Assembly (NCBI GenBank): GCA_024653945.1
Contig: JANLIT010000004.1
Location: 13,281 to 77,280, forward strand
Origin: Candidatus Campbellbacteria bacterium
GTDB taxonomy: Bacteria; Patescibacteriota; Minisyncoccia; Phycocordibacterales; EsbW-18
Direction of reading: 5' to 3'
Length of the DNA: 64,000 nucleotides
In this document: one piece after another, positions 3,672 to 13,734 of the stretch
Position numbering within the stretch: position 1 is the stretch's first letter
Layout of the letters: the number at the start of each line of letters is the position of its first letter
Notes under the pieces: model-generated
Told to the model about the DNA's origin: nothing
Databases searched by the model: none
The model's input: only the letters and a program-made list of their open reading frames with translations
Made by a program: the position numbers and the translations under genes

Positions 3672-4754
3672 TTACACAATCAATAAATCTTTTGCGAGAA
3701 GAAGATAGTTGAAGTACGACAAGAAGACAATCAAAATAATGAGTGCGATGCCATGAGAAAATTCACGCGAGTGTCTTTTGTGTACTTGAAAGAGAACCAT
3801 CAACAATGTCACAAAAGCAAGTGCGAGTCCGATGATGATGTATCCCCAACGAACCACGGCTCGTGGTTGTGCTAAAAACTTCTCCCACGCATTTGTATAC
3901 GAAATTCGTTCAACGGGCATAATGACCTCCTCCTTAACTGAAGCTCCTGCCGTATTCGCATCTCGCGCTGGGGTAAACTCCTGTGCTAATGAAACATCTT
4001 GGGCCCCTTCTGGAGCTGGAGCCGGTACTTGGGTCACTGCTGTTGGGGTCACCTCCTGAACTACCACTGGCTCTGAAACGGTCTGCTGGGCTACAGCCAC
4101 GGTAGCTCCCTGTACCTCCTGTGTGCTCGCAACGGCAAGCGTAGGGGCAGTTTGAGCAATCACGGGGGCAACCGCGACTTGTGCTGGCGTACCAAAAAGC
4201 TGAACGACAAAAATGGTCTTCCTGTCCTTGTATTGCCCTGGGACAGCGGCAATACCTATTTCAGTAAAGGTCCCATTCATGATGTTTTCTCGGTGTCCTG
4301 GAGAGTTCATCCATGCTTGTTCAACGTCACCCGAGTCAACAAAGTTCACCGCCAAGTTTTCTCCCGCATTCACAAAATTGTATCCCGCTCGGTAAAACCA
4401 ATACCACGGATTGAGTCCGTCGGGACTTGTGTGTGCAAAATATTCGTTTTCCGCCATGTGCTCCGCCTTCATGCGTGCCGCCTTTTCCAAAATCGGACTC
4501 ACCGTCAAATCAGAAAGTCCTTCTGCTTCTCGGTCCTTGTTTGCAAGGTCAACAAGCACTCCGGGAACAACCGCTGCTGTAAATTCAATACTCGTACGAA
4601 TGAGAAGCGCTTGGAATACAGAAAAACCAAACGTGAGCACGAGAATCGTGGTAAGCGCAACAATACTTGCATCACGAACCATGTGTGGCTTGTGGTCGTT
4701 GCCTTCGTGCGGAATGAAGTAATCTTTAATATGTTTTCGCATAGCTGTTAGCAT
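3672..4754 (-). CDS. CAP/SCP (YkwD-like) domain membrane protein with a Thr/Val/Ala/Pro-rich linker
   Basis: CAP-domain motifs HTSPDG, GENLA, WMNSPGHRENIM; N- and C-terminal hydrophobic segments. Confidence 0.6.
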   Translation of the reverse strand: MLTAMRKHIKDYFIPHEGNDHKPHMVRDASIVALTTILVLTFGFSVFQALLIRTSIEFTAAVVPGVLVDLANKDREAEGLSDLTVSPILEKAARMKAEHMAENEYFAHTSPDGLNPWYWFYRAGYNFVNAGENLAVNFVDSGDVEQAWMNSPGHRENIMNGTFTEIGIAAVPGQYKDRKTIFVVQLFGTPAQVAVAPVIAQTAPTLAVASTQEVQGATVAVAQQTVSEPVVVQEVTPTAVTQVPAPAPEGAQDVSLAQEFTPARDANTAGASVKEEVIMPVERISYTNAWEKFLAQPRAVVRWGYIIIGLALAFVTLLMVLFQVHKRHSREFSHGIALIILIVFLSYFNYLLLAKDLLIV

Positions 4755-5414: not shown

Positions 5415-5482
5415 ATTCGCTGTACATGGTAACTCTTTTTGCCCGTTGTGTCAACCCCATCGTGGGTTGGGGCCGTCTTAAT

Positions 5483-5559
5483 GCAAAACCCGCCCAAAAG
5501 GCGGGTTTTGCGCTTTTTTGTTTTCCGAAGCGAAGCTTCCCTTTTGGAAGCTTCGCTTC
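5483..5559 (-). terminator. tandem perfect hairpins downstream of the 605-aa surface-protein gene
   Basis: 12-bp stem GCAAAACCCGCC/GGCGGGTTTTGC and 14-bp stem GAAGCGAAGCTTCC/GGAAGCTTCGCTTC; the second hairpin recurs at 7488-7520. Confidence 0.6.
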
Positions 5560-5572
5560 TTGTTTTAAATCT

Positions 5573-7390
5573 TTAGTAAAGACACATCTTCAATCCTCCA
5601 AATCCTGTAGCAGGAGCACCGAGTGGAAGAATGGATGTTTGCTCACCCAAGACCTCACCAAGAACCTCTCCGCCACCATCTGTGGATGAGTTTCGACGAC
5701 GGAAGCCACTTCCTCCACCGTCGTCGTCATCGTCTCCGTTTGTATCATCACCACCAGTATCTTCGTGAGAATATGAGTTGGTGAATGTACATGTTACATC
5801 CTGATCTTCAGAGAGATACACAGTTACAGACCTCTCTGGTTTATTCGTGTCATACTCAGTTCCATAGTTACAACTAATGAGAGACAGGCTCCAATCAACA
5901 CCTGCATCTACTTCACTGATTGTGTACGTTCCTGAAGAAAGATTCGACAGTACCTCAGGTTCATCATTTGCAGAAAGATCAAACGATGATTCATCCCAGT
6001 AATTAAATGTAAATATGTGGGTTCCATCCGCACCTTCGTTTACCTCCTTGTCAATTGTGATTGAACCTCCGTTCTGATGATTACCAAAGTCCTTGAGCGA
6101 GAAGGTGCCGGGTGTTCCTTCTCCGTCGCCCTGAATCCGATGTCCAACAGTGCCGTTTGCGCAGGTAACCGTTCCGTCCGAAGCGGAAATCGGCGAGGTC
6201 TGTTCCCAACCGCTTTGGACCTCTTCGCAGACAACGTAATTAAGCTCTGGGTCTAAACTGTCGAAGGAGTAGTTGCCGTCGCCATCGGTCGTAGTCGTGT
6301 CCGCGGGCGTCTCTTCGATTACAGTCGTATCTTCGTCGATTGTGTACGGGAACAGGTTGATGGTCCATCCGTCGATGCCGGATTCGTCATCGCTCTGCCG
6401 ATCGCTGTTCACGTCGTTCCACTTCATGCCAGTAACAATGGATCGCGTGGTATTGGTAAAGGTACAAGTCACATCATCGCCACTTTCCACAGTGATTCGT
6501 TCGCCATCTTCAACGGCACTACCAGTGCTATCACCATCGTAAATACATTCTACGTCGGCTAATTGCCAGGCGCTCTGCTGGGTTTCCAGAACATCATATG
6601 TTCCAGGAGCGAGGGAGATGGGACTGGAAGTCGCGGTGTTATCTTCTGGGTCAGCGTCAGGTGTAAGATCAACCCCGTACAAGAACACGGTTGGATCTAT
6701 TCCCGTCACCAAAAATTCAAAGTTGGGGGTCCTTCTAGGGTCAACTGGCTCACCTTGCACGAGACCTTGAAAATCCCCAATCTTCACAATCGTAAGGGTT
6801 GCTGGAGGTATACATGTCTCGCTGTCCACAGTCAGTCTGAATATAACTCCTGCTGGATTACCCGGTCCGTCGGGTTCGTCGTTTGTTGCCTCAATCGTCA
6901 GCGTGTTCGTACCGCTCAAAAGAGAGCTGGCTGGGATAGGGTGTGTTCCAACAATCTGCCAATTGTCACCAGAGCCTACCGCATTGCCGTTGATGGTGAC
7001 AACGTAACTGTTGTCCGCGGTGATATCAAGAGAAGCTCCTGTTGGTGTTCCAACAATCTCAAACGTTCTCGTGAAGGTCAGCGTGCCGGCTGGGTGCGAG
7101 CCTGTGTCATCGGCAGGGACTTTGTCTGCATCCCAGATCCACGTAGCACCTGATGGAAGTGGATCATAGTCATCCCATACGGAGTGTGGAGTAACAGCAA
7201 CCGCATTACCACTACCTACTTGTGTTTCCGAATCACTGACAAGTGTCTGTGTGCTTGGGTCACACGCTGGTGCTACCGTTGCATTTGCGTTCAGTGGACT
7301 AAAAGAAAATACCCCAATAAAAAGAAGTGCGCCCAAAAGCCCCAGCCCAATAGTTCGATGTGTTTTATACGATGTAGTAATGAGAGCCAT
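5573..7390 (-). CDS. secreted adhesin-like surface protein (605 aa) with SdrD-B/Cna-B-like domains; paralog of the 1639-aa gene upstream
   Basis: Signal peptide MALITTSYKT...NANA; SdrD-B/Cna-B-like segments with Thr-Cys-Thr-Phe-Thr-Asn (TCTFTN) motifs and GMKWNDVNSDRQ; C-terminal 45 aa identical to the paralog (ends LPLGAPATGFGGLKMCLY). Confidence 0.7.
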   Translation of the reverse strand: MALITTSYKTHRTIGLGLLGALLFIGVFSFSPLNANATVAPACDPSTQTLVSDSETQVGSGNAVAVTPHSVWDDYDPLPSGATWIWDADKVPADDTGSHPAGTLTFTRTFEIVGTPTGASLDITADNSYVVTINGNAVGSGDNWQIVGTHPIPASSLLSGTNTLTIEATNDEPDGPGNPAGVIFRLTVDSETCIPPATLTIVKIGDFQGLVQGEPVDPRRTPNFEFLVTGIDPTVFLYGVDLTPDADPEDNTATSSPISLAPGTYDVLETQQSAWQLADVECIYDGDSTGSAVEDGERITVESGDDVTCTFTNTTRSIVTGMKWNDVNSDRQSDDESGIDGWTINLFPYTIDEDTTVIEETPADTTTTDGDGNYSFDSLDPELNYVVCEEVQSGWEQTSPISASDGTVTCANGTVGHRIQGDGEGTPGTFSLKDFGNHQNGGSITIDKEVNEGADGTHIFTFNYWDESSFDLSANDEPEVLSNLSSGTYTISEVDAGVDWSLSLISCNYGTEYDTNKPERSVTVYLSEDQDVTCTFTNSYSHEDTGGDDTNGDDDDDGGGSGFRRRNSSTDGGGEVLGEVLGEQTSILPLGAPATGFGGLKMCLY

Positions 7391-7487
7391 ATGTATATGA
7401 TTAGTGACCCACCTTTAGTGGCGAGCTCTGATTAATTAACAACTTTTATTAAAATACTTTTCCCGAGGGTTAAACCTCTGCTTAAAA

Positions 7488-7520
7488 GAAGCGAAGCTTC
7501 CCTTCTGGAAGCTTCGCTTC
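7488..7520 (-). terminator. hairpin downstream of the 1639-aa gene; duplicate of the hairpin at 5527-5559
   Basis: GAAGCGAAGCTTCC-CTTCT-GGAAGCTTCGCTTC perfect stem; a REP-like GAGGGTTAAACCTC lies next to it at 7465-7478. Confidence 0.55.
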
Positions 7521-7534
7521 TTGCTTTTAAATCT

Positions 7535-10500
7535 TTAGTAAAGACACATCTTCAATCCTCCAAAGCCTGTGTTTGGAGCTCCGAGTGGAAGAATGGATGT
7601 TTGTTCACCCAAAACCTCACCAAGAACCTCTCCGCCACCATCTGTGGATGAGTTTCGACGAAAACCTGAGCTTCCGCCACCATTACTTCCACCACCATCG
7701 TCTGTTGTAATTGTAGGATTTTGGTGGTTACCGAAGTCAATACCAACCAGAGAATCTCCTAGAGAAAGTTCCACTTCATGGCCGGCCCCTTCACCCTGAC
7801 AGAGCGTGTTGCCCGACGGGTATGTCTTCTCCCATCCGTCCTGGCCCGTCTCACAGACTATGTATGTGTCTGGAATAAGGTCGGAGAATGAGTAGTTTCC
7901 ATCAGCGTCGGTTTCCGTTGACACGATGAACCCGCCTTCACTATCGTTTGAAGCGTGGATCGCCCAGCCCTGAAGACCTGGTTCACCCGAATCCTTGATA
8001 CCATCAGCGTTAAGGTCATTCCACTTCATACCCGAGATTGAGCCTCTGTCATCATCGTTTGTAAAGACACACGTAATTGTTTCTCCGTTAGACAGAACAA
8101 TGTTGCCTGAATTAATATCGGTGTGTCCTGTGTCATCTGATGTACACGATACACTTTGAAGATTCCATCCAGGTAGAACTGTCTCAGTCACTGAATACGA
8201 GGTGCCAACATTAAGGTCACCACTGTTGTGTTCCTGATTTGCTTCAAGCAAGAAGTTATCAGTACTCCAACTTGGGTCAAATTCAAACGCAGTGTTTGTG
8301 TCGCTTACTTCTGTCACCTCCTTGCGAACGATAATTCGTTCGCCATCATCGTCATCGTCGTCTCCACTTGTTTGAGGGTCATAGGTGTTGGTGAATGTGC
8401 AGGTAACGTCTTCATCCTCACCAAGTGTAATTTCAACATCACCTTCACCTAGGTCGTGAAAAAAATCAACGTCGTCGCCACAATCAACATCCGTGACATA
8501 CCAATCGTCGTCGGTGCTAGTTAATTCAGTAACGATATAGCTTCCAGCTACAAGACCTGAGAATGTTTCTGGATCATTGCTTGCTGTAAGGAGTATGTCG
8601 TCATCGCCCCCATCGAGGTCAAATGAGAATGCTTCATCTTGACTTCCCCCCACAACAACCTTATCAATCGTAATAGAACCTCCGTCCTGGTGATTGCCGA
8701 AATCAAAACCATCTCGGTCATCAGTACCTGTGTCAATAATAAGTTGGTACCCAACACCATCATCACACGCTACAGCATATCCGTCAGAAATCTCTGGTGA
8801 TGTTTGATTCCAACCACTTCCTTGTGCTTCACACACTTTGTAATCGCCATAAGAAATATTGAACTGGTAGTAACCGTCTGAATTTGTTTCCATTGAGCCA
8901 ACGAGGACATCCTCGTCATCATAGATATTGATAGTCCAACCTTCAATTGTTGGTTCGTCGTAATCTTTGTATCCATCATTATCAAGATCGTTGTACTTCA
9001 CACCATTGATGTTTCCTTCACCACCTCCCTGTTGTCCGTCTCTCTCGTTGATAAGGTTGAAGGTGTACACACCCTGATCACTGTCGATATTCCAAACAGT
9101 ACCTCCTCCCGCACCACTGAAGTATGACCAGCCATCCTGCATAACTTCGTCCACAGTGTACTCATCAAGAGCAACATCATTGAAGGTTACACAACCTGTT
9201 TCATCAGTAATACCTGTGTACCCCTTGTAGATATCAACCGAGAGTGTTCCTGAGTTATCATCAAACCATCCTGGGTTCTGCACACCACTATCACCATCAA
9301 AGATGGTAAATGGTACTGGACCAGTAACGCTTGGTGTGAACCCTTGGAGGTATGCATGTGGAGTATTGTATGCACCCCAGTTGCCGAATCCAAGTCCACT
9401 AAAGTCGCCACCAATGTTGAGTTCAAGAATTTCTGTTGGGTACCCTGTGTATCCGTCCATCTGGGTTGCCCAAGAATCTATTGTAGAGTATTCAGAGTCA
9501 ACAAGGTTTGCACCACCTTGGTTACTCCACGTACCGTCTGCAAAAGCAAGGTATGATGTTCCCGCGTCAAGCGATGTTGAGTCAGTACCGTTGATATCCT
9601 CTGAATCAACAATCAAGTCCGATTCTACAGAATCACCCTTGAGGAAGACCGTCCATCCTGAAAGACCCTCGTTCTGGCCCACCTCATACTTACAAATCGT
9701 AACTTCATTGTGGTGTTCTGGTTCTTGTGGTGGCACACAGAAGAGCGCCACGTTGTCGAGGAACGTCCCCTCGGAGTTTGGAGTACCGAGGTCTTTAAAT
9801 GCGATGTCTGTTGAACTGTCTCCGGCTACAAATGAGTGTGCATACGTGTTCCATACCGTGTTTAGATTTGCACTTCCATCAAGACTCACCGCGTTAAGCA
9901 CGTTGCCATCTTGTGAGACTTCAAGATTGTTTTCTGAAGTTCCTGTTCCTGGTCGTGGAGAGAATGCGTATGAAAGTTGATACGTTCTTCCTGGAACCGT
10001 TGCAATAGCTTCTGAAATGATAGTTGATGCCTCTTCACCATTTGGACCACTTGCGTGACCGTTCCAATCAGAATCGAGCTCAGCGTACTGTTCAAGCTCA
10101 TATGGCAACCATCCGTTTACTCCACCGTGAAGTTCTGCATTTGCTGTAGCGGGAGCGCCTACAAATGCACCCGCCCATGCAACCGTCCAATCAAGACCTG
10201 AAAAACCTGAAGCAAAGATGTCCCATCCAGAACCATCGGTAACGTCTGGCAATTCAAATCCTCCGTTTGCAATAAGATTTTGTTCAGGATTACACTCGCG
10301 AGCGTTCACAAGGTTAAATGTTTGTGTGGGTTCATTTACTGTGACCTGACTTCCTGCATTAGTTGCATCATCTGCATCAGTAAGGTTTTCCCAACCCTCC
10401 TGCATAAATTCATCAAGAGTATATGTGCCATAAGGAACCGCTTCAAATGACACACAACCATCTTTATTCGTTGTTCCTGAATAGTCGTGTTCATCAGTAT

Positions 10501-12454
10501 CATCGGCCATAAATGTATCATCACCGACATACTCATCAAGCCACACCTCCCAATCTGAGAGAAGGTTTTCTGGGTCAACTGAGTTTTCATACTTACAAAT
10601 CGTTATGTCTGATGTGTCTTCAACTGGTGGTTGCTCACAAGATGTCTGCTCTTCACCGTTCACCACAAGTTGGTAGATACCTGCTGCGGGGTTCCTTTCA
10701 GGAAGCTGTTCGTATCCTGCCATACCAATGTTTTCAACCGTCAATTCAATAGTGTTCCATCCTGAATCAACATAACTGGTGACATCCGTAGGACCAGTAA
10801 CAGCTCCATAGTTAAATTCGGTTATGTTTGAGATAACAGGGTCACCGTTGATAGTAATCCAGTAGCGGTTATCTGCAGCAAGATTAAGAGTTGCGTCGTT
10901 TACAGGACCGTCAACAAAGAAATCTTTTGTAAATGTTTTTGCCACAGTTTGTGATCCGTCAACAACTTGATAGCTGTCCCAAATCCAAGTAGCTACACTG
11001 TTGAGTGCTGTGGTCCATGCACCGTGAATCCACGCGGCAACTGCATCACCGTTACCAACGCCTTCGTCACCCGCTTCACTCACCACCTCTACACGACACG
11101 CTTCTGCCACCAAGATAGGAACGTTCCACGCAACACAGTAGTAGTCTGTGTCCGGTGTGGTGCTAAGCCATTCCCAGTTATCATAGTGAAGTATGTCATC
11201 AGAACAATAGATTTCTGCTGAAACATTTTCTGTTGTGTTTTGACCTGTAAAAGGAATGTAATTTGCGTCAAAAAGTTCACGTACACGAAGCTGACTATCG
11301 TTTGAAATATCAACCACTGCAGTACCAGCAACAAATGCTGTCCATCCTGCTCCTGCTGAGCCTGGAGTATTGTCGTCAGGGTCTCCAGCGGTGCTGTAAC
11401 TCCATTCAAAGTCCCACGGAACGAGCTGACAGCCGTTATTTGGGTTTGCTGCGAGCCAGCGAGTTGCAGTATTTGATGTCACAGTTGTAAGTGTTGATGT
11501 ACCTGCGCCCCAGTTTGGAAGGTCACTTTCTTCATCACACTCAATTTTTTGTGCGTGAAGGGTAACAGTTTCTTCTGATGGAACGACGCCTTCGTTATAT
11601 GCAACACAGTGGGCAGTTCCGTCAGTGGGAACGAATGTAAGCTCTTGGTTATCGTTTGTACCAGAAGTATCTCCGTCACCTTCACAGTAAAGACCTAAAA
11701 CATCTTCGTTTGGAAGTTTGTTACCGGCGCCGTCGGTTTCAACAATAAGATAGCGTCCAGCTGATGGGAGATTGTCTATAGTGAGTATTCCGCTACCGTT
11801 TGTTGAACCATCTTCAATGAATGGTCCGTCTAATTCTGGGTAAGGACCATCGGTATCATCTGCTTCGCCGTGAACATACCCAAAAGTCTTGCCCGACTGC
11901 AAAGCACATGCTTCTGGTACATCTCCGCCTACACCATTATCGTCGCGATTTACGGTTGTACCGTCAGGACACACGTATTTTGTAATTTCAATTGAACCCG
12001 TTGGGTCATCACTGCCTATATCTTCACAAGCATCCCCGATATTATTCTGATTTCCGTCTACCTGATCTGGATTTACAGCATTTACACAGTTATCACATGC
12101 GTCTCCAACACCATCCCCATCTGCATCTTCTTGGTTAGGATTTGCAACCTCAGAACAATTATCTGAGTCATCGGGAATATCATCATCGTCTGTGTCTACT
12201 GGATCTGGTGCGGGACAAGCGCCACTTTGATCGGGCATAACATCTCCGTGGTCAAGATGTGTTTGAAGAGCGTTTGCATTAAAGGTTAACAAAGAGAAAT
12301 TGCCGTCGTCGTCTTTGTGACAAACAGTAACATCTCCTGCTGGTTGTGCATTTACTAACGAGCCAAAAGAAAACACTCCAACAACAAGGAGTGCGCCCAA
12401 AAGCCCCAACCCAATAGTTCGATATGTTTTATACGAGGTAGTAATGAAAGCCAT
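7535..12454 (-). CDS. giant secreted adhesin-like protein (1639 aa) with thrombospondin type-3-like Ca-binding repeats and several SdrD-B/Cna-B-like domains
   Basis: Signal peptide; D-rich DxDxDG/NC..NP.Q repeats (about aa 83-150); segments with TCTFTNT/TCVFTND motifs and GMKWNDLNADG; C-terminus identical to the 605-aa paralog. Confidence 0.75.
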   Translation of the reverse strand: MAFITTSYKTYRTIGLGLLGALLVVGVFSFGSLVNAQPAGDVTVCHKDDDGNFSLLTFNANALQTHLDHGDVMPDQSGACPAPDPVDTDDDDIPDDSDNCSEVANPNQEDADGDGVGDACDNCVNAVNPDQVDGNQNNIGDACEDIGSDDPTGSIEITKYVCPDGTTVNRDDNGVGGDVPEACALQSGKTFGYVHGEADDTDGPYPELDGPFIEDGSTNGSGILTIDNLPSAGRYLIVETDGAGNKLPNEDVLGLYCEGDGDTSGTNDNQELTFVPTDGTAHCVAYNEGVVPSEETVTLHAQKIECDEESDLPNWGAGTSTLTTVTSNTATRWLAANPNNGCQLVPWDFEWSYSTAGDPDDNTPGSAGAGWTAFVAGTAVVDISNDSQLRVRELFDANYIPFTGQNTTENVSAEIYCSDDILHYDNWEWLSTTPDTDYYCVAWNVPILVAEACRVEVVSEAGDEGVGNGDAVAAWIHGAWTTALNSVATWIWDSYQVVDGSQTVAKTFTKDFFVDGPVNDATLNLAADNRYWITINGDPVISNITEFNYGAVTGPTDVTSYVDSGWNTIELTVENIGMAGYEQLPERNPAAGIYQLVVNGEEQTSCEQPPVEDTSDITICKYENSVDPENLLSDWEVWLDEYVGDDTFMADDTDEHDYSGTTNKDGCVSFEAVPYGTYTLDEFMQEGWENLTDADDATNAGSQVTVNEPTQTFNLVNARECNPEQNLIANGGFELPDVTDGSGWDIFASGFSGLDWTVAWAGAFVGAPATANAELHGGVNGWLPYELEQYAELDSDWNGHASGPNGEEASTIISEAIATVPGRTYQLSYAFSPRPGTGTSENNLEVSQDGNVLNAVSLDGSANLNTVWNTYAHSFVAGDSSTDIAFKDLGTPNSEGTFLDNVALFCVPPQEPEHHNEVTICKYEVGQNEGLSGWTVFLKGDSVESDLIVDSEDINGTDSTSLDAGTSYLAFADGTWSNQGGANLVDSEYSTIDSWATQMDGYTGYPTEILELNIGGDFSGLGFGNWGAYNTPHAYLQGFTPSVTGPVPFTIFDGDSGVQNPGWFDDNSGTLSVDIYKGYTGITDETGCVTFNDVALDEYTVDEVMQDGWSYFSGAGGGTVWNIDSDQGVYTFNLINERDGQQGGGEGNINGVKYNDLDNDGYKDYDEPTIEGWTINIYDDEDVLVGSMETNSDGYYQFNISYGDYKVCEAQGSGWNQTSPEISDGYAVACDDGVGYQLIIDTGTDDRDGFDFGNHQDGGSITIDKVVVGGSQDEAFSFDLDGGDDDILLTASNDPETFSGLVAGSYIVTELTSTDDDWYVTDVDCGDDVDFFHDLGEGDVEITLGEDEDVTCTFTNTYDPQTSGDDDDDDGERIIVRKEVTEVSDTNTAFEFDPSWSTDNFLLEANQEHNSGDLNVGTSYSVTETVLPGWNLQSVSCTSDDTGHTDINSGNIVLSNGETITCVFTNDDDRGSISGMKWNDLNADGIKDSGEPGLQGWAIHASNDSEGGFIVSTETDADGNYSFSDLIPDTYIVCETGQDGWEKTYPSGNTLCQGEGAGHEVELSLGDSLVGIDFGNHQNPTITTDDGGGSNGGGSSGFRRNSSTDGGGEVLGEVLGEQTSILPLGAPNTGFGGLKMCLY

Positions 12455-12814
12455 ATGTATATGATTAGTGACCTACCTTTTTGGGTAGGCTATTAAAAAC
12501 GTTTTTTATAAAAATACCCCTGTGTACAACTAATTATCCCTCTACAAACCGTCTCCACCTCGGAGATCAAATTTTTCTAAAGATTACACCGTCATTTTAA
12601 TCTAGTCAAGCCCCACAAGTCAAAGACATTTTTAAAGATTTTGTGTATAGACGGTGGATAATAATACAATACAAAAGAATAATTGTGTCAAACGACTTTC
12701 CTGTTCATTGACAAAATTCTTTTTACTCATTTTGATAATTTTCTTTTTTCTCACCCCATCCTTTTCAACACAACAAAAAGAGTTCAATCCCCCACCCCAC
12801 CAAGATTAATATCT

Positions 12815-12852
12815 CCCAAAGGTTAAACCTTCGCAAAGGTTTAACCTTTGGG
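12815..12852. repeat. REP-like palindromes (2 copies) of the family CAAAGGTT(T)AAACCTTYG
   Basis: caaaggttaaaccttcg followed by caaaggtttaacctttgg; the same palindrome family flanks the RAYT gene. Confidence 0.65.
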
Positions 12853-12867
12853 TACCATACATATCCA

Positions 12868-12996
12868 TAAAGGACATTATAAAAGACATTTAAATATGGA
12901 TGCGATGTTTATATTTTTATAAAGGACATAAAGGACATTATCTCGCCCCACCTTCCACCACCAAAGGTTAAACCTTTGGGCGTTGCGTCCTTTATA
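12868..12996. promoter_or_regulatory. array of five TAAAGGACAT-like direct/inverted repeats in the intergenic region upstream of the giant adhesin gene
   Basis: taaaggacat at 12868, 12920 and 12929; taaaagacat at 12879; inverted copy gtcctttata at 12987. Confidence 0.35.
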
Positions 12997-13043
12997 AAAA
13001 TTTCATCCCTGTGGTGTAAATTACCGAACGAAGGTTTAACCTT
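12961..13043. repeat. two REP-like palindromes at the 5' side of the RAYT gene
   Basis: ccaaaggttaaacctttgg (12961-12979) and cgaaggtttaaccttcg (13027-13043). Confidence 0.65.
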
Positions 13044-13052
13044 CGTAAATCT

Positions 13053-13710
13053 TATGGGAAGAAAAGTGGCACTTGCTCTGGGTGAGTTTTACCATCTCTA
13101 TAACCGGGGCGTCGAAAAAAGAATAGTTTTCACTAATAAATATGACTATGATCGTTTTTTGTCCCTGATGTATCTATGCAATACCACAAAATACGTAGAT
13201 GCTCGAGAGCAAGGAGGTACGCTTCAAAAAGCCTACAGAACAAGGGGTGGCAATCGAATAGTTGATATCTGTACGTATTGCCTTATGCCAAACCATTTTC
13301 ACATTCTCATAAAGGAAATGGCCGAGGGTGGTGCCAGTAAATTTATGCAAAAACTAACCACAGGATACACAATGTACTTCAATAAACGATATAAACACAC
13401 CGGGGCACTTTTTCAAGGAACATACAAATCATCACACGCAAATACCGACCAATATCTTTCCTACCTTATTGCGTATATTCATCTCAATCCTGTCAAAATT
13501 ATTGAACCGAACTGGAAAAAAGACGGCATCCTGAATTTACAAAGAGCTGAAATGTACCTAAAAGAATACCCGCACTCAAGTTATCTCGACTATCTCGGCA
13601 AAACACGCGTTCATAATTGCATCATAAATAAGAGTGCTTTGCCTGAGTACTGTAGTACTCCACAAGATTTTATGGAAAGTGTTAAAACTTGGCTCTCCCC
13701 GAAGGTTTAA
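13053..13710 (+). CDS. REP-associated tyrosine transposase (IS200-like Y1 transposase, RAYT)
   Basis: HuH motif NHFHILI and catalytic-Tyr region YLIAYIHLNPV; flanked on both sides by REP palindromes; the ORF track starts at 12976, but the two 5' REPs lie inside that extension, so Met 13053 is preferred. Confidence 0.75.
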
Positions 13711-13734
13711 CCTTCGCGAAGGTTAAACCTTCGG
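13700..13734. repeat. two REP-like palindromes overlapping the RAYT stop codon
   Basis: cgaaggtttaaccttcg and cgaaggttaaaccttcg. Confidence 0.65.

Follow-up and report, generated by a model that had tools for sequence, protein, structure and literature searches.

How two neighbouring genes for large surface proteins come to begin and end almost alike, while the DNA between their ends cannot be aligned, is the question raised by a 64,000-nucleotide (nt) stretch of DNA, hereafter the window, from Candidatus Campbellbacteria bacterium, a member of the candidate phyla radiation (CPR, or Patescibacteria). The window is part of a 148-kb contig of a metagenome-assembled genome (MAG, NUW02). Read along the minus strand, it carries adhesin gene B, a 144-nt spacer, adhesin gene A, a class F sortase gene, and genes for a membrane CAP-domain protein and a 223-amino-acid (aa) protein; tsaD, valS and a Y1 transposase gene similar to REP-associated tyrosine transposases (RAYT; REP, repetitive extragenic palindrome) lie on the plus strand. 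We consider it likely that A and B, two tandem paralogues, are substrates of the downstream class F sortase, with ends that have evolved in concert. The shared 5′ block would then consist of the last ~65 nt of the leader and a family-specific Sec signal peptide, and the shared 3′ block of a family-specific sorting signal with a short LKMCLY tail, followed by a lineage-specific hairpin. Purifying selection on export and anchoring keeps the ends alike, and the same ends are retained by the adhesins at syntenic loci of other species. At the 3′ end alone, coding sequence and hairpin appear to have been copied together in a recent duplication or gene conversion, and A was probably added to a locus with a single gene in other species. 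The genes concerned are:

7535-12454, minus strand: gene B (NUW02_03120, identical to MCR4275010.1), a secreted multidomain surface protein of 1639 aa
5573-7390, minus strand: gene A (NUW02_03115, identical to MCR4275009.1), a secreted surface protein of 605 aa
4764-5414, minus strand: class F sortase (NF033748, 182 bits against a cutoff of 166), directly downstream of A
3672-4754, minus strand: membrane CAP-domain protein

Both adhesin genes are complete, each with all its signals. The B protein comprises a signal peptide, TSP3-like repeats, DUF642/choice-of-anchor C, SpaA/SpaA_4, two SdrD_B domains, DUF5979 and a C-terminal sorting signal, and the A protein a signal peptide, a 'WIWD' domain, SpaA_4, SdrD_B, DUF5979 and a C-terminal sorting signal. 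The sortase gene has its own conserved promoter-like site (5426-5454). An earlier note on this DNA had described the ends of A and B as identical; the repeats are real, but they are only near-identical. The 3′ repeat, which takes in ~127 coding nt, the stop codon and the 45 nt beyond it, including a hairpin, is 94.3% identical over 174 nt with one 1-nt indel. At the 5′ ends, the claim of a common leader and ~100 nt of coding sequence is borne out by a repeat of 85% identity over 157 nt, or 91% over 116 nt, in which the 24-nt leader GGTCACTAATCATATACATATGGC is exact in both copies; it occurs only twice in 64 kb, with no occurrence expected. The repeats and the hairpins associated with them are:

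7301-7457, minus strand: 5′ repeat, copy A; ~65 nt of leader (A/T-rich box, small hairpin, TCACTAATCATATACAT) and the signal-peptide coding sequence
12365-12517, minus strand: 5′ repeat, copy B; leader and signal-peptide coding sequence as in copy A
5527-5699, minus strand: 3′ repeat, copy A; codes for RRNSSTDGGGEVLGEVLGEQTSILPLGAPATGFGGLKMCLY, then the stop codon and 45 nt that include the hairpin
7488-7661, minus strand: 3′ repeat, copy B; the same peptide but with APNTG, then the stop codon and the hairpin
5527-5559, minus strand: hairpin, copy A; 14-bp stem, no U-tract after it, then GGAAAAC
7486-7522, minus strand: hairpin, copy B; 16-bp stem, then UUUU
5482-5512, minus strand: canonical terminator hairpin AAAACCCGCC...GGCGGGTTTT, downstream of A and separate from the A hairpin

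The hairpin, GAAGCGAAGCTTCC-N5-GGAAGCTTCGCTTC, occupies exactly two sites in 64 kb where none is expected by chance, and the surrounding 121-131 nt give fold z-scores of -6.2 (A) and -4.2 (B). It is thus duplicated, as had been claimed, but the role of terminator fits only the B copy with its UUUU, plausibly the terminator of B and perhaps a leaky one; the A copy has no U-tract. A search of the locus with Rfam gave no match at the gathering score, the hairpins producing sub-threshold hits only (ohsC, 27 bits against 50).

The neighbourhood valS-(RAYT)-adhesin-sortase F-CAP-tsaD is kept across Campbellbacteria-like Paceibacteria; it is found in four other related species, with one adhesin gene in each. 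By the labels of their loci, these are:

L043: adhesin of 1631 aa; valS product 74% identical in aa to that of the window
L046 and L047: adhesin of 1283 aa
L048, L049 and L053: adhesin of 847-858 aa
L001, L044, L045 and L050-L052: adhesin of 849 aa; valS product 64% identical in aa to that of the window

The neighbouring genes share 57-90% aa identity across the relatives (74-90% with L043). All these adhesins have the short-tailed signal described below; their bodies, which are not collinear, vary widely in length, and A has no counterpart at the syntenic locus in any of the four species. The comparison across species does show fixed ends and rebuilt middles at this locus, with A as a putative lineage-specific addition. 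Fission of one long ancestral gene was considered as an origin of the pair and rejected: B is about as long as the single gene of L043 (1639 versus 1631 aa), so A looks like an addition and not like half of a split gene.

What, then, do the conserved ends encode? The 3′ block codes for RRNSSTDGGGEVLGEVLGEQTSILPLGAP(A/N)TGFGGLKMCLY, and the signal of the family reads EVLGEQTSxLPxGAPxTGxGG. When 1.84 billion representative proteins were searched with a profile of the 3′ peptide, 21 proved to carry the motif [ILV]Px GAP[NAD]TGxGG. Fourteen of them continue with a tail of 26-38 residues, in most cases with a hydrophobic segment and basic residues, an architecture that is, by its sequence, a canonical sorting signal. 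Seven (A, B and five orthologue-like proteins, from six species) end six residues on with L[KQR]MC[LIF]x, in which Met-Cys is invariant. The last nine codons of A and B lie at 5576-5602 and 7538-7564, and the short end is also present in L043, L046, L048 and L001. In all five syntenic loci examined, the gene with the short end lies directly upstream of a class F sortase. The motif gene is single in 11 other sortase loci, mostly of CPR bacteria (L001, L002, L006-L009, L011, L021, L043, L046 and L048); among these, the loci found with a sortase query (L002, L006-L009 and L011) have exactly one motif gene, 29-715 nt upstream of a class F-type sortase, a spacing taken from the CPR loci where gene and sortase coordinates were compared. 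The 3′ block is best read as the putative cognate sorting signal of the adjacent sortase.

With the canonical sortase signal (LPXTG, a hydrophobic segment and a basic tail) this element has in common an xPxGAPxTG motif beside a dedicated sortase gene, and the long-tailed relatives have the full form. It differs in that A, B and the five relatives end six residues after TGxGG with no membrane-spanning segment. In A and B the position of the LPXTG-type pentapeptide is taken by the variant LPLGAP(A/N)TG, TG is followed by FGG and LKMCLY only, with neither a hydrophobic membrane segment nor a basic tail, and an NCBIfam scan at E<=0.01 gave no LPXTG-anchor domain match for either protein. We considered whether stop-codon read-through, a frameshift or bypass of the hairpin by the ribosome might give access to a hidden membrane anchor, and rejected this: no downstream frame is hydrophobic in A or B, and the short end is followed by unrelated downstream DNA in L043, L046, L048 and L001 as well.

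Silent sites bear on whether function alone keeps the ends alike. The proportion of synonymous sites that differ between A and B (pS) is lower at the ends (0.19 at the 3′ end, 0.21 at the 5′ end) than in the bodies (0.73-0.89). In the final 41 codons, 6 of the 32 synonymous sites separate A from B (pS 0.19), whereas A and B each give a pS of 0.62-0.63 when compared with the L043 gene (binomial p = 4e-7). The hairpin and its 45-nt non-coding tail are found only after A and B and are missing after the adhesin gene in L043, L046, L048 and L001. The homology between A and B stops exactly at the base of the hairpin; beyond the A copy follow the AAAACCCGCC-type terminator and the conserved sortase promoter, as they do after the single adhesin gene of L043. 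Since pS is low, the non-coding hairpin is confined to A and B, and the boundary falls at the hairpin base, the 3′ end would seem to have been duplicated or converted recently in this lineage; the gene conversion proposed in the earlier note is, with recent duplication, the best reading of this end.

Selection alone, with the ends held alike by constraint on the signal peptide, the sorting signal and RNA elements and with no recent recombination between A and B, would account for a 5′ block that is as conserved between species as it is between A and B, and also for a 29-nt stretch of the 3′ block that is identical in A, L046 and L048. We regard this explanation as unlikely in view of the 3′ pS and of the non-coding tail common to A and B alone; moreover, the A hairpin, which has no U-tract and stands before a second terminator, looks like a passenger.

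Several points nevertheless weigh against a concerted pair of sortase substrates. The synonymous comparison of the 3′ ends rests on 32 sites. The variable codon of APxTG differs by 3 nt between A (GCT, as in L046, L048 and L001) and B (AAC, near the AAT of L043), which points to a patchy history of the 3′ block; the 29-nt identical stretch of that block makes some nucleotide-level constraint possible. A and B are sortase substrates by prediction from sequence, with a tail devoid of the membrane anchor required by canonical substrates. Recombination at the locus is seen by inference only: no second strain of the species is present in the databases, where valS, A and B each form a singleton cluster at 90% identity.

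The 5′ end gives a different picture. The block codes for a typical Sec signal peptide, MA(L/F)ITTSYKT(H/Y)RTIGLGLLGALL..VGVFSF...(A/V)NA, with a basic n-region and a hydrophobic core (KD15 2.5-2.6) in both proteins; the ANA and VNA cleavage sites were read from the translation and not from a dedicated predictor. Over the first 96 nt, A and B are 86% identical and B and the L043 gene 88%, the 5′ pS is 0.24 between species versus 0.21-0.33 for A and B, and the leader TCACTAATCATATA is present in L043 too. Functional conservation is enough to explain the 5′ block, and there is no recombination signal in it; cross-species conservation is for this end an equally good explanation of the concerted look. 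Taken together, the function of the ends explains most of their conservation.

The 5′ homology is limited to the last ~65 nt of the B leader and does not reach the promoter-like site of B:

12594-12623, minus strand: promoter-like site TTGACT-18-TAAAAT, ~140 nt upstream of B and outside the 5′ repeat, so that A has no copy of it

A similar site, TTGACA-18-TACAAT, was read by eye upstream of the L043 gene. The spacer between B and A yielded no sigma-70-like site. As this spacer has no such site and the B promoter lies outside the repeat, A may depend for its transcription on read-through from B.

The leaders have further features of their own. A short GC-rich stem-loop lies 15-20 nt upstream of the start codon in every adhesin gene of the locus (window 7410-7430 and 12474-12492; L043 ~6287-6305; L046 ~9968-9980; L048 ~4499-4511; L001 ~7229-7241), with stems that vary by gene (CCAC/GTGG, CCTACC/GGTAGG, CTTGC/GCAAG, CCGCC/GGCGG and CCGCG/CGCGG). 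The small leader hairpin gave a weak result when tested for covariation, in part because the alignment was in poor register. Within the signal-peptide coding sequence of B (12373-12394), a small hairpin is followed by a T-run (GCACTCCTTGTTGTTGGAGTGT TTTCTTTT) in the manner of a terminator; a 30-nt stretch at this hairpin is identical in the L043 gene, and the pairing is kept in A through G-U pairs. This hairpin could be an attenuator or reflect mere codon-level conservation.

Between the ends, the central regions had been described as differing completely. They do differ in length and are unalignable, but at the DNA level only: both bodies carry SdrD_B, SpaA_4, DUF5979 and a 'WIWD' beta-sandwich-like domain, with 34-47% aa identity, so the domain families are common to the two. 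The homologous body domains are saturated at silent sites. B and the L043 protein (P0012) match in non-collinear, scattered patches of 34-47%, and residues 441-540 of A are 72% identical to P0014, a protein of another organism, versus 37% to B. The bodies are old, separately evolving mosaics of immunoglobulin (Ig)-like domains. Within A, positions 6040-6640 (codons ~250-450, SpaA_4/SdrD_B) have a GC content at third codon positions (GC3) of 0.55-0.66, compared with 0.29-0.46 in other genes, and the closest relatives of the A mid-body are domains of unrelated CPR proteins (57-62%), not B (37-47%), which hints at horizontal acquisition of these domains. A foreign origin of the A body was treated as suggestive only, since an SdrD_B region of B also reaches a GC3 of 0.55.

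Could such a locus be a device for antigenic variation? The earlier note had suggested cassette-style variation; in its programmed form, the fixed ends would serve as an expression slot and the bodies would come from silent cassettes, as in pilE/pilS or vlsE. Neisseria pilE/pilS and Borrelia vlsE need, besides one expression site, numerous silent partial copies that lack promoters. The layout of conserved ends around divergent bodies, like the conserved flanks around a variable surface-protein segment in those systems, and the radical difference of bodies between species at this locus would suit such a mechanism. However, both genes of the window are complete, blastn and tblastn searches with A and B gave no match in the other 57 kb of the window and hence no silent copies there, no site-specific recombinase or invertase lies beside the genes, the relatives have a single gene, and the ends are explained by function, as export and sorting signals. 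We hold a programmed cassette system to be highly improbable here.

Comparison of assemblies points the same way. A check for body swaps between strains was run in the L001 species only, where five assemblies from different samples agree at 99.93-99.97% across the adhesin; the same body was present in all five, with no swaps. A metagenome scan with the C-terminal alignment found two loci, both of the L001 species, and a query that fused the N-terminal with the C-terminal peptide had no match. The only length difference among the five assemblies lies in a poly-A tract directly after the signal peptide:

L001 7353-7359 and L044 7643-7649: A7, frameshifted
L050 2741-2748, L051 1054-1061 and L052 201-208: A8, intact 849-aa protein (P0038)

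A second frame shift of the adhesin falls at codons 5-6 in the L048 group, with A4 in L048 (4543-4546) and L049 versus A3 in L053 (3013-3015), in assemblies that are 99.1% identical; the frameshifted A4/A3 form is called from a downstream GTG, which leaves a truncated signal peptide. Phase-variable adhesins that switch by homopolymer slippage are familiar from Neisseria opa and from the contingency loci of Haemophilus and Campylobacter. The L001 adhesin resembles them in differing between samples only by A7/A8 after the signal peptide, and this difference looks like slipped-strand phase variation, or homopolymer error; unlike such a locus, A and B have no tract at that position, and the L001 comparison is one between samples. 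Where the locus varies, then, the pattern resembles on/off phase variation (or homopolymer error) and not an exchange of cassettes.

Unequal crossing-over between the direct repeats (174 nt and ~150 nt) could delete, fuse or amplify the genes, but this would be occasional evolutionary recombination and not a programmed switch. A more far-reaching idea is that the locus is a fixed 'adhesin slot', in which the end blocks act as homology arms to exchange or add bodies among paralogues and species, and that L[KQR]MC[LIF]x is a new anchor-less class F sorting signal. We regard this as a rather doubtful possibility.

Two further explanations concern how A came to stand next to B. The source is a MAG and the relatives have a single gene here, so that assembly might have taken the alleles of a one-gene locus from two strains and joined them in tandem via their shared ends. 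The repeats, at 85-94% identity, are not identical, however, and B and A are connected by 144 nt of unique sequence that include a separate REP and a diverged leader. When assemblers meet allelic bubbles, they resolve them into alternative paths and do not string the copies together in tandem. An assembly artefact is on these grounds very unlikely. Mobile elements offer the other route, and the features in question are:

12976-13710, plus strand: Y1 (IS200-like/RAYT-like) transposase gene (Pfam Y1_Tnp 38 bits against a cutoff of 23; REP_Tyr_transpos 42 against 80)
12819-12848, 12964-12976, 13031-13043 and 13702-13731: REP palindromes around the transposase gene, six copies of AAGGTTWAACCTT
7466-7478, no strand: REP-like palindrome AGGGTTAAACCTC in the 144-nt spacer between B and A

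The REP transposase, the REP cluster upstream of the adhesin genes and a palindrome near 7465-7478 had all been reported before; we find the cluster and the palindrome, and a transposase gene that is RAYT-like. The adjacent transposase could have imported or duplicated A via the REP in the spacer: the palindrome lies exactly at the B-A junction, the RAYT-like gene with its six REPs is upstream of B, and REPs directly follow the adhesin stop codon in L001 and L048. Yet the junction has a single REP with no partner beyond A, homologous repeats of 174 nt bound the segment, as is typical of homologous recombination and not of transposition, and the NCBIfam RAYT score is 42 bits against a cutoff of 80. 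To our knowledge, RAYTs mobilise REPs and not genes. There is only a slim chance that A was moved in this manner.

Tandem paralogous substrates with concerted ends, the explanation that we favour, have parallels in well-studied pathogens. The closest analogue in architecture is the sdrC-sdrD-sdrE array of Staphylococcus aureus (PMC3098876), which likewise consists of tandem same-strand paralogues encoding sortase substrates with a shared signal peptide and anchor region and divergent ligand-binding bodies, has SdrD B-type (CnaB-like) repeats, for which there is a Pfam match here too, and varies in gene number among lineages (PMC3098876, PMC9427642). It differs from the present pair, which has no SD-dipeptide region, carries GAPxTG and a 6-residue tail instead of LPXTG and a membrane anchor, is partnered by a class F and not a class A sortase, and belongs to a CPR bacterium. 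The emm/mrp/enn genes of group A Streptococcus are also adjacent paralogous surface genes whose signal-peptide and anchor ends are conserved and whose middles are hypervariable (PMC6321872, PMC9993116, PMC6952200), but encode coiled coils where A and B encode Ig-like arrays, and their recombination is seen across many strains whereas ours is inferred from one genome. An emm-enn fusion documents recombination between neighbouring genes in group A streptococci (PMC6321872, PMC9993116), and the direct repeats described here would permit a fusion of that kind.

Some other features of the window may be recorded here. Between the RAYT-like gene and B (12868-12939) there are three copies of AATGTCYTTWA against 0.26 expected, and similar ATGTCCTTTA motifs were seen by eye in the L043, L001 and L048 counterparts; they may be operator sites or element remnants. 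A second sortase gene (59290-59979) stands beside a gene for a 1154-aa protein with six SpaA_2 repeats (window 55787-59979); this protein has a sorting-like segment in an unusual, mid-protein position (EVLG...LTQVPYTG, a hydrophobic stretch and RRR), followed by a domain of ~300 residues. At 62028-63251, two long open reading frames of 404 and 397 aa overlap on opposite strands, the minus-strand one with a weak match to the IS110 family (20 bits, just below the cutoff). Upstream of tRNA-Ser (162-249), positions 17-118 repeat the GCGGAGACGGGAGGATTCG start of the tRNA and look like a degenerate or interrupted tRNA-like copy, which is called by neither ARAGORN nor Rfam.

Gram-positive pathogens offer well-known examples of the overall pattern of A and B, which is not in itself surprising; what stands out is the anchor-less tail and the poly-A frame switch. 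The most unusual element is a conserved sorting signal that has no membrane anchor and ends with an LKMCLY-type tail, in a family of large Ig-domain proteins that a specific GAPxTG signal links to class F sortases. Attachment to host cells is the presumed way of life of CPR bacteria, whose surface proteins probably set host range; here an adhesin at a conserved locus appears to have been rebuilt between species and to be open to duplication.

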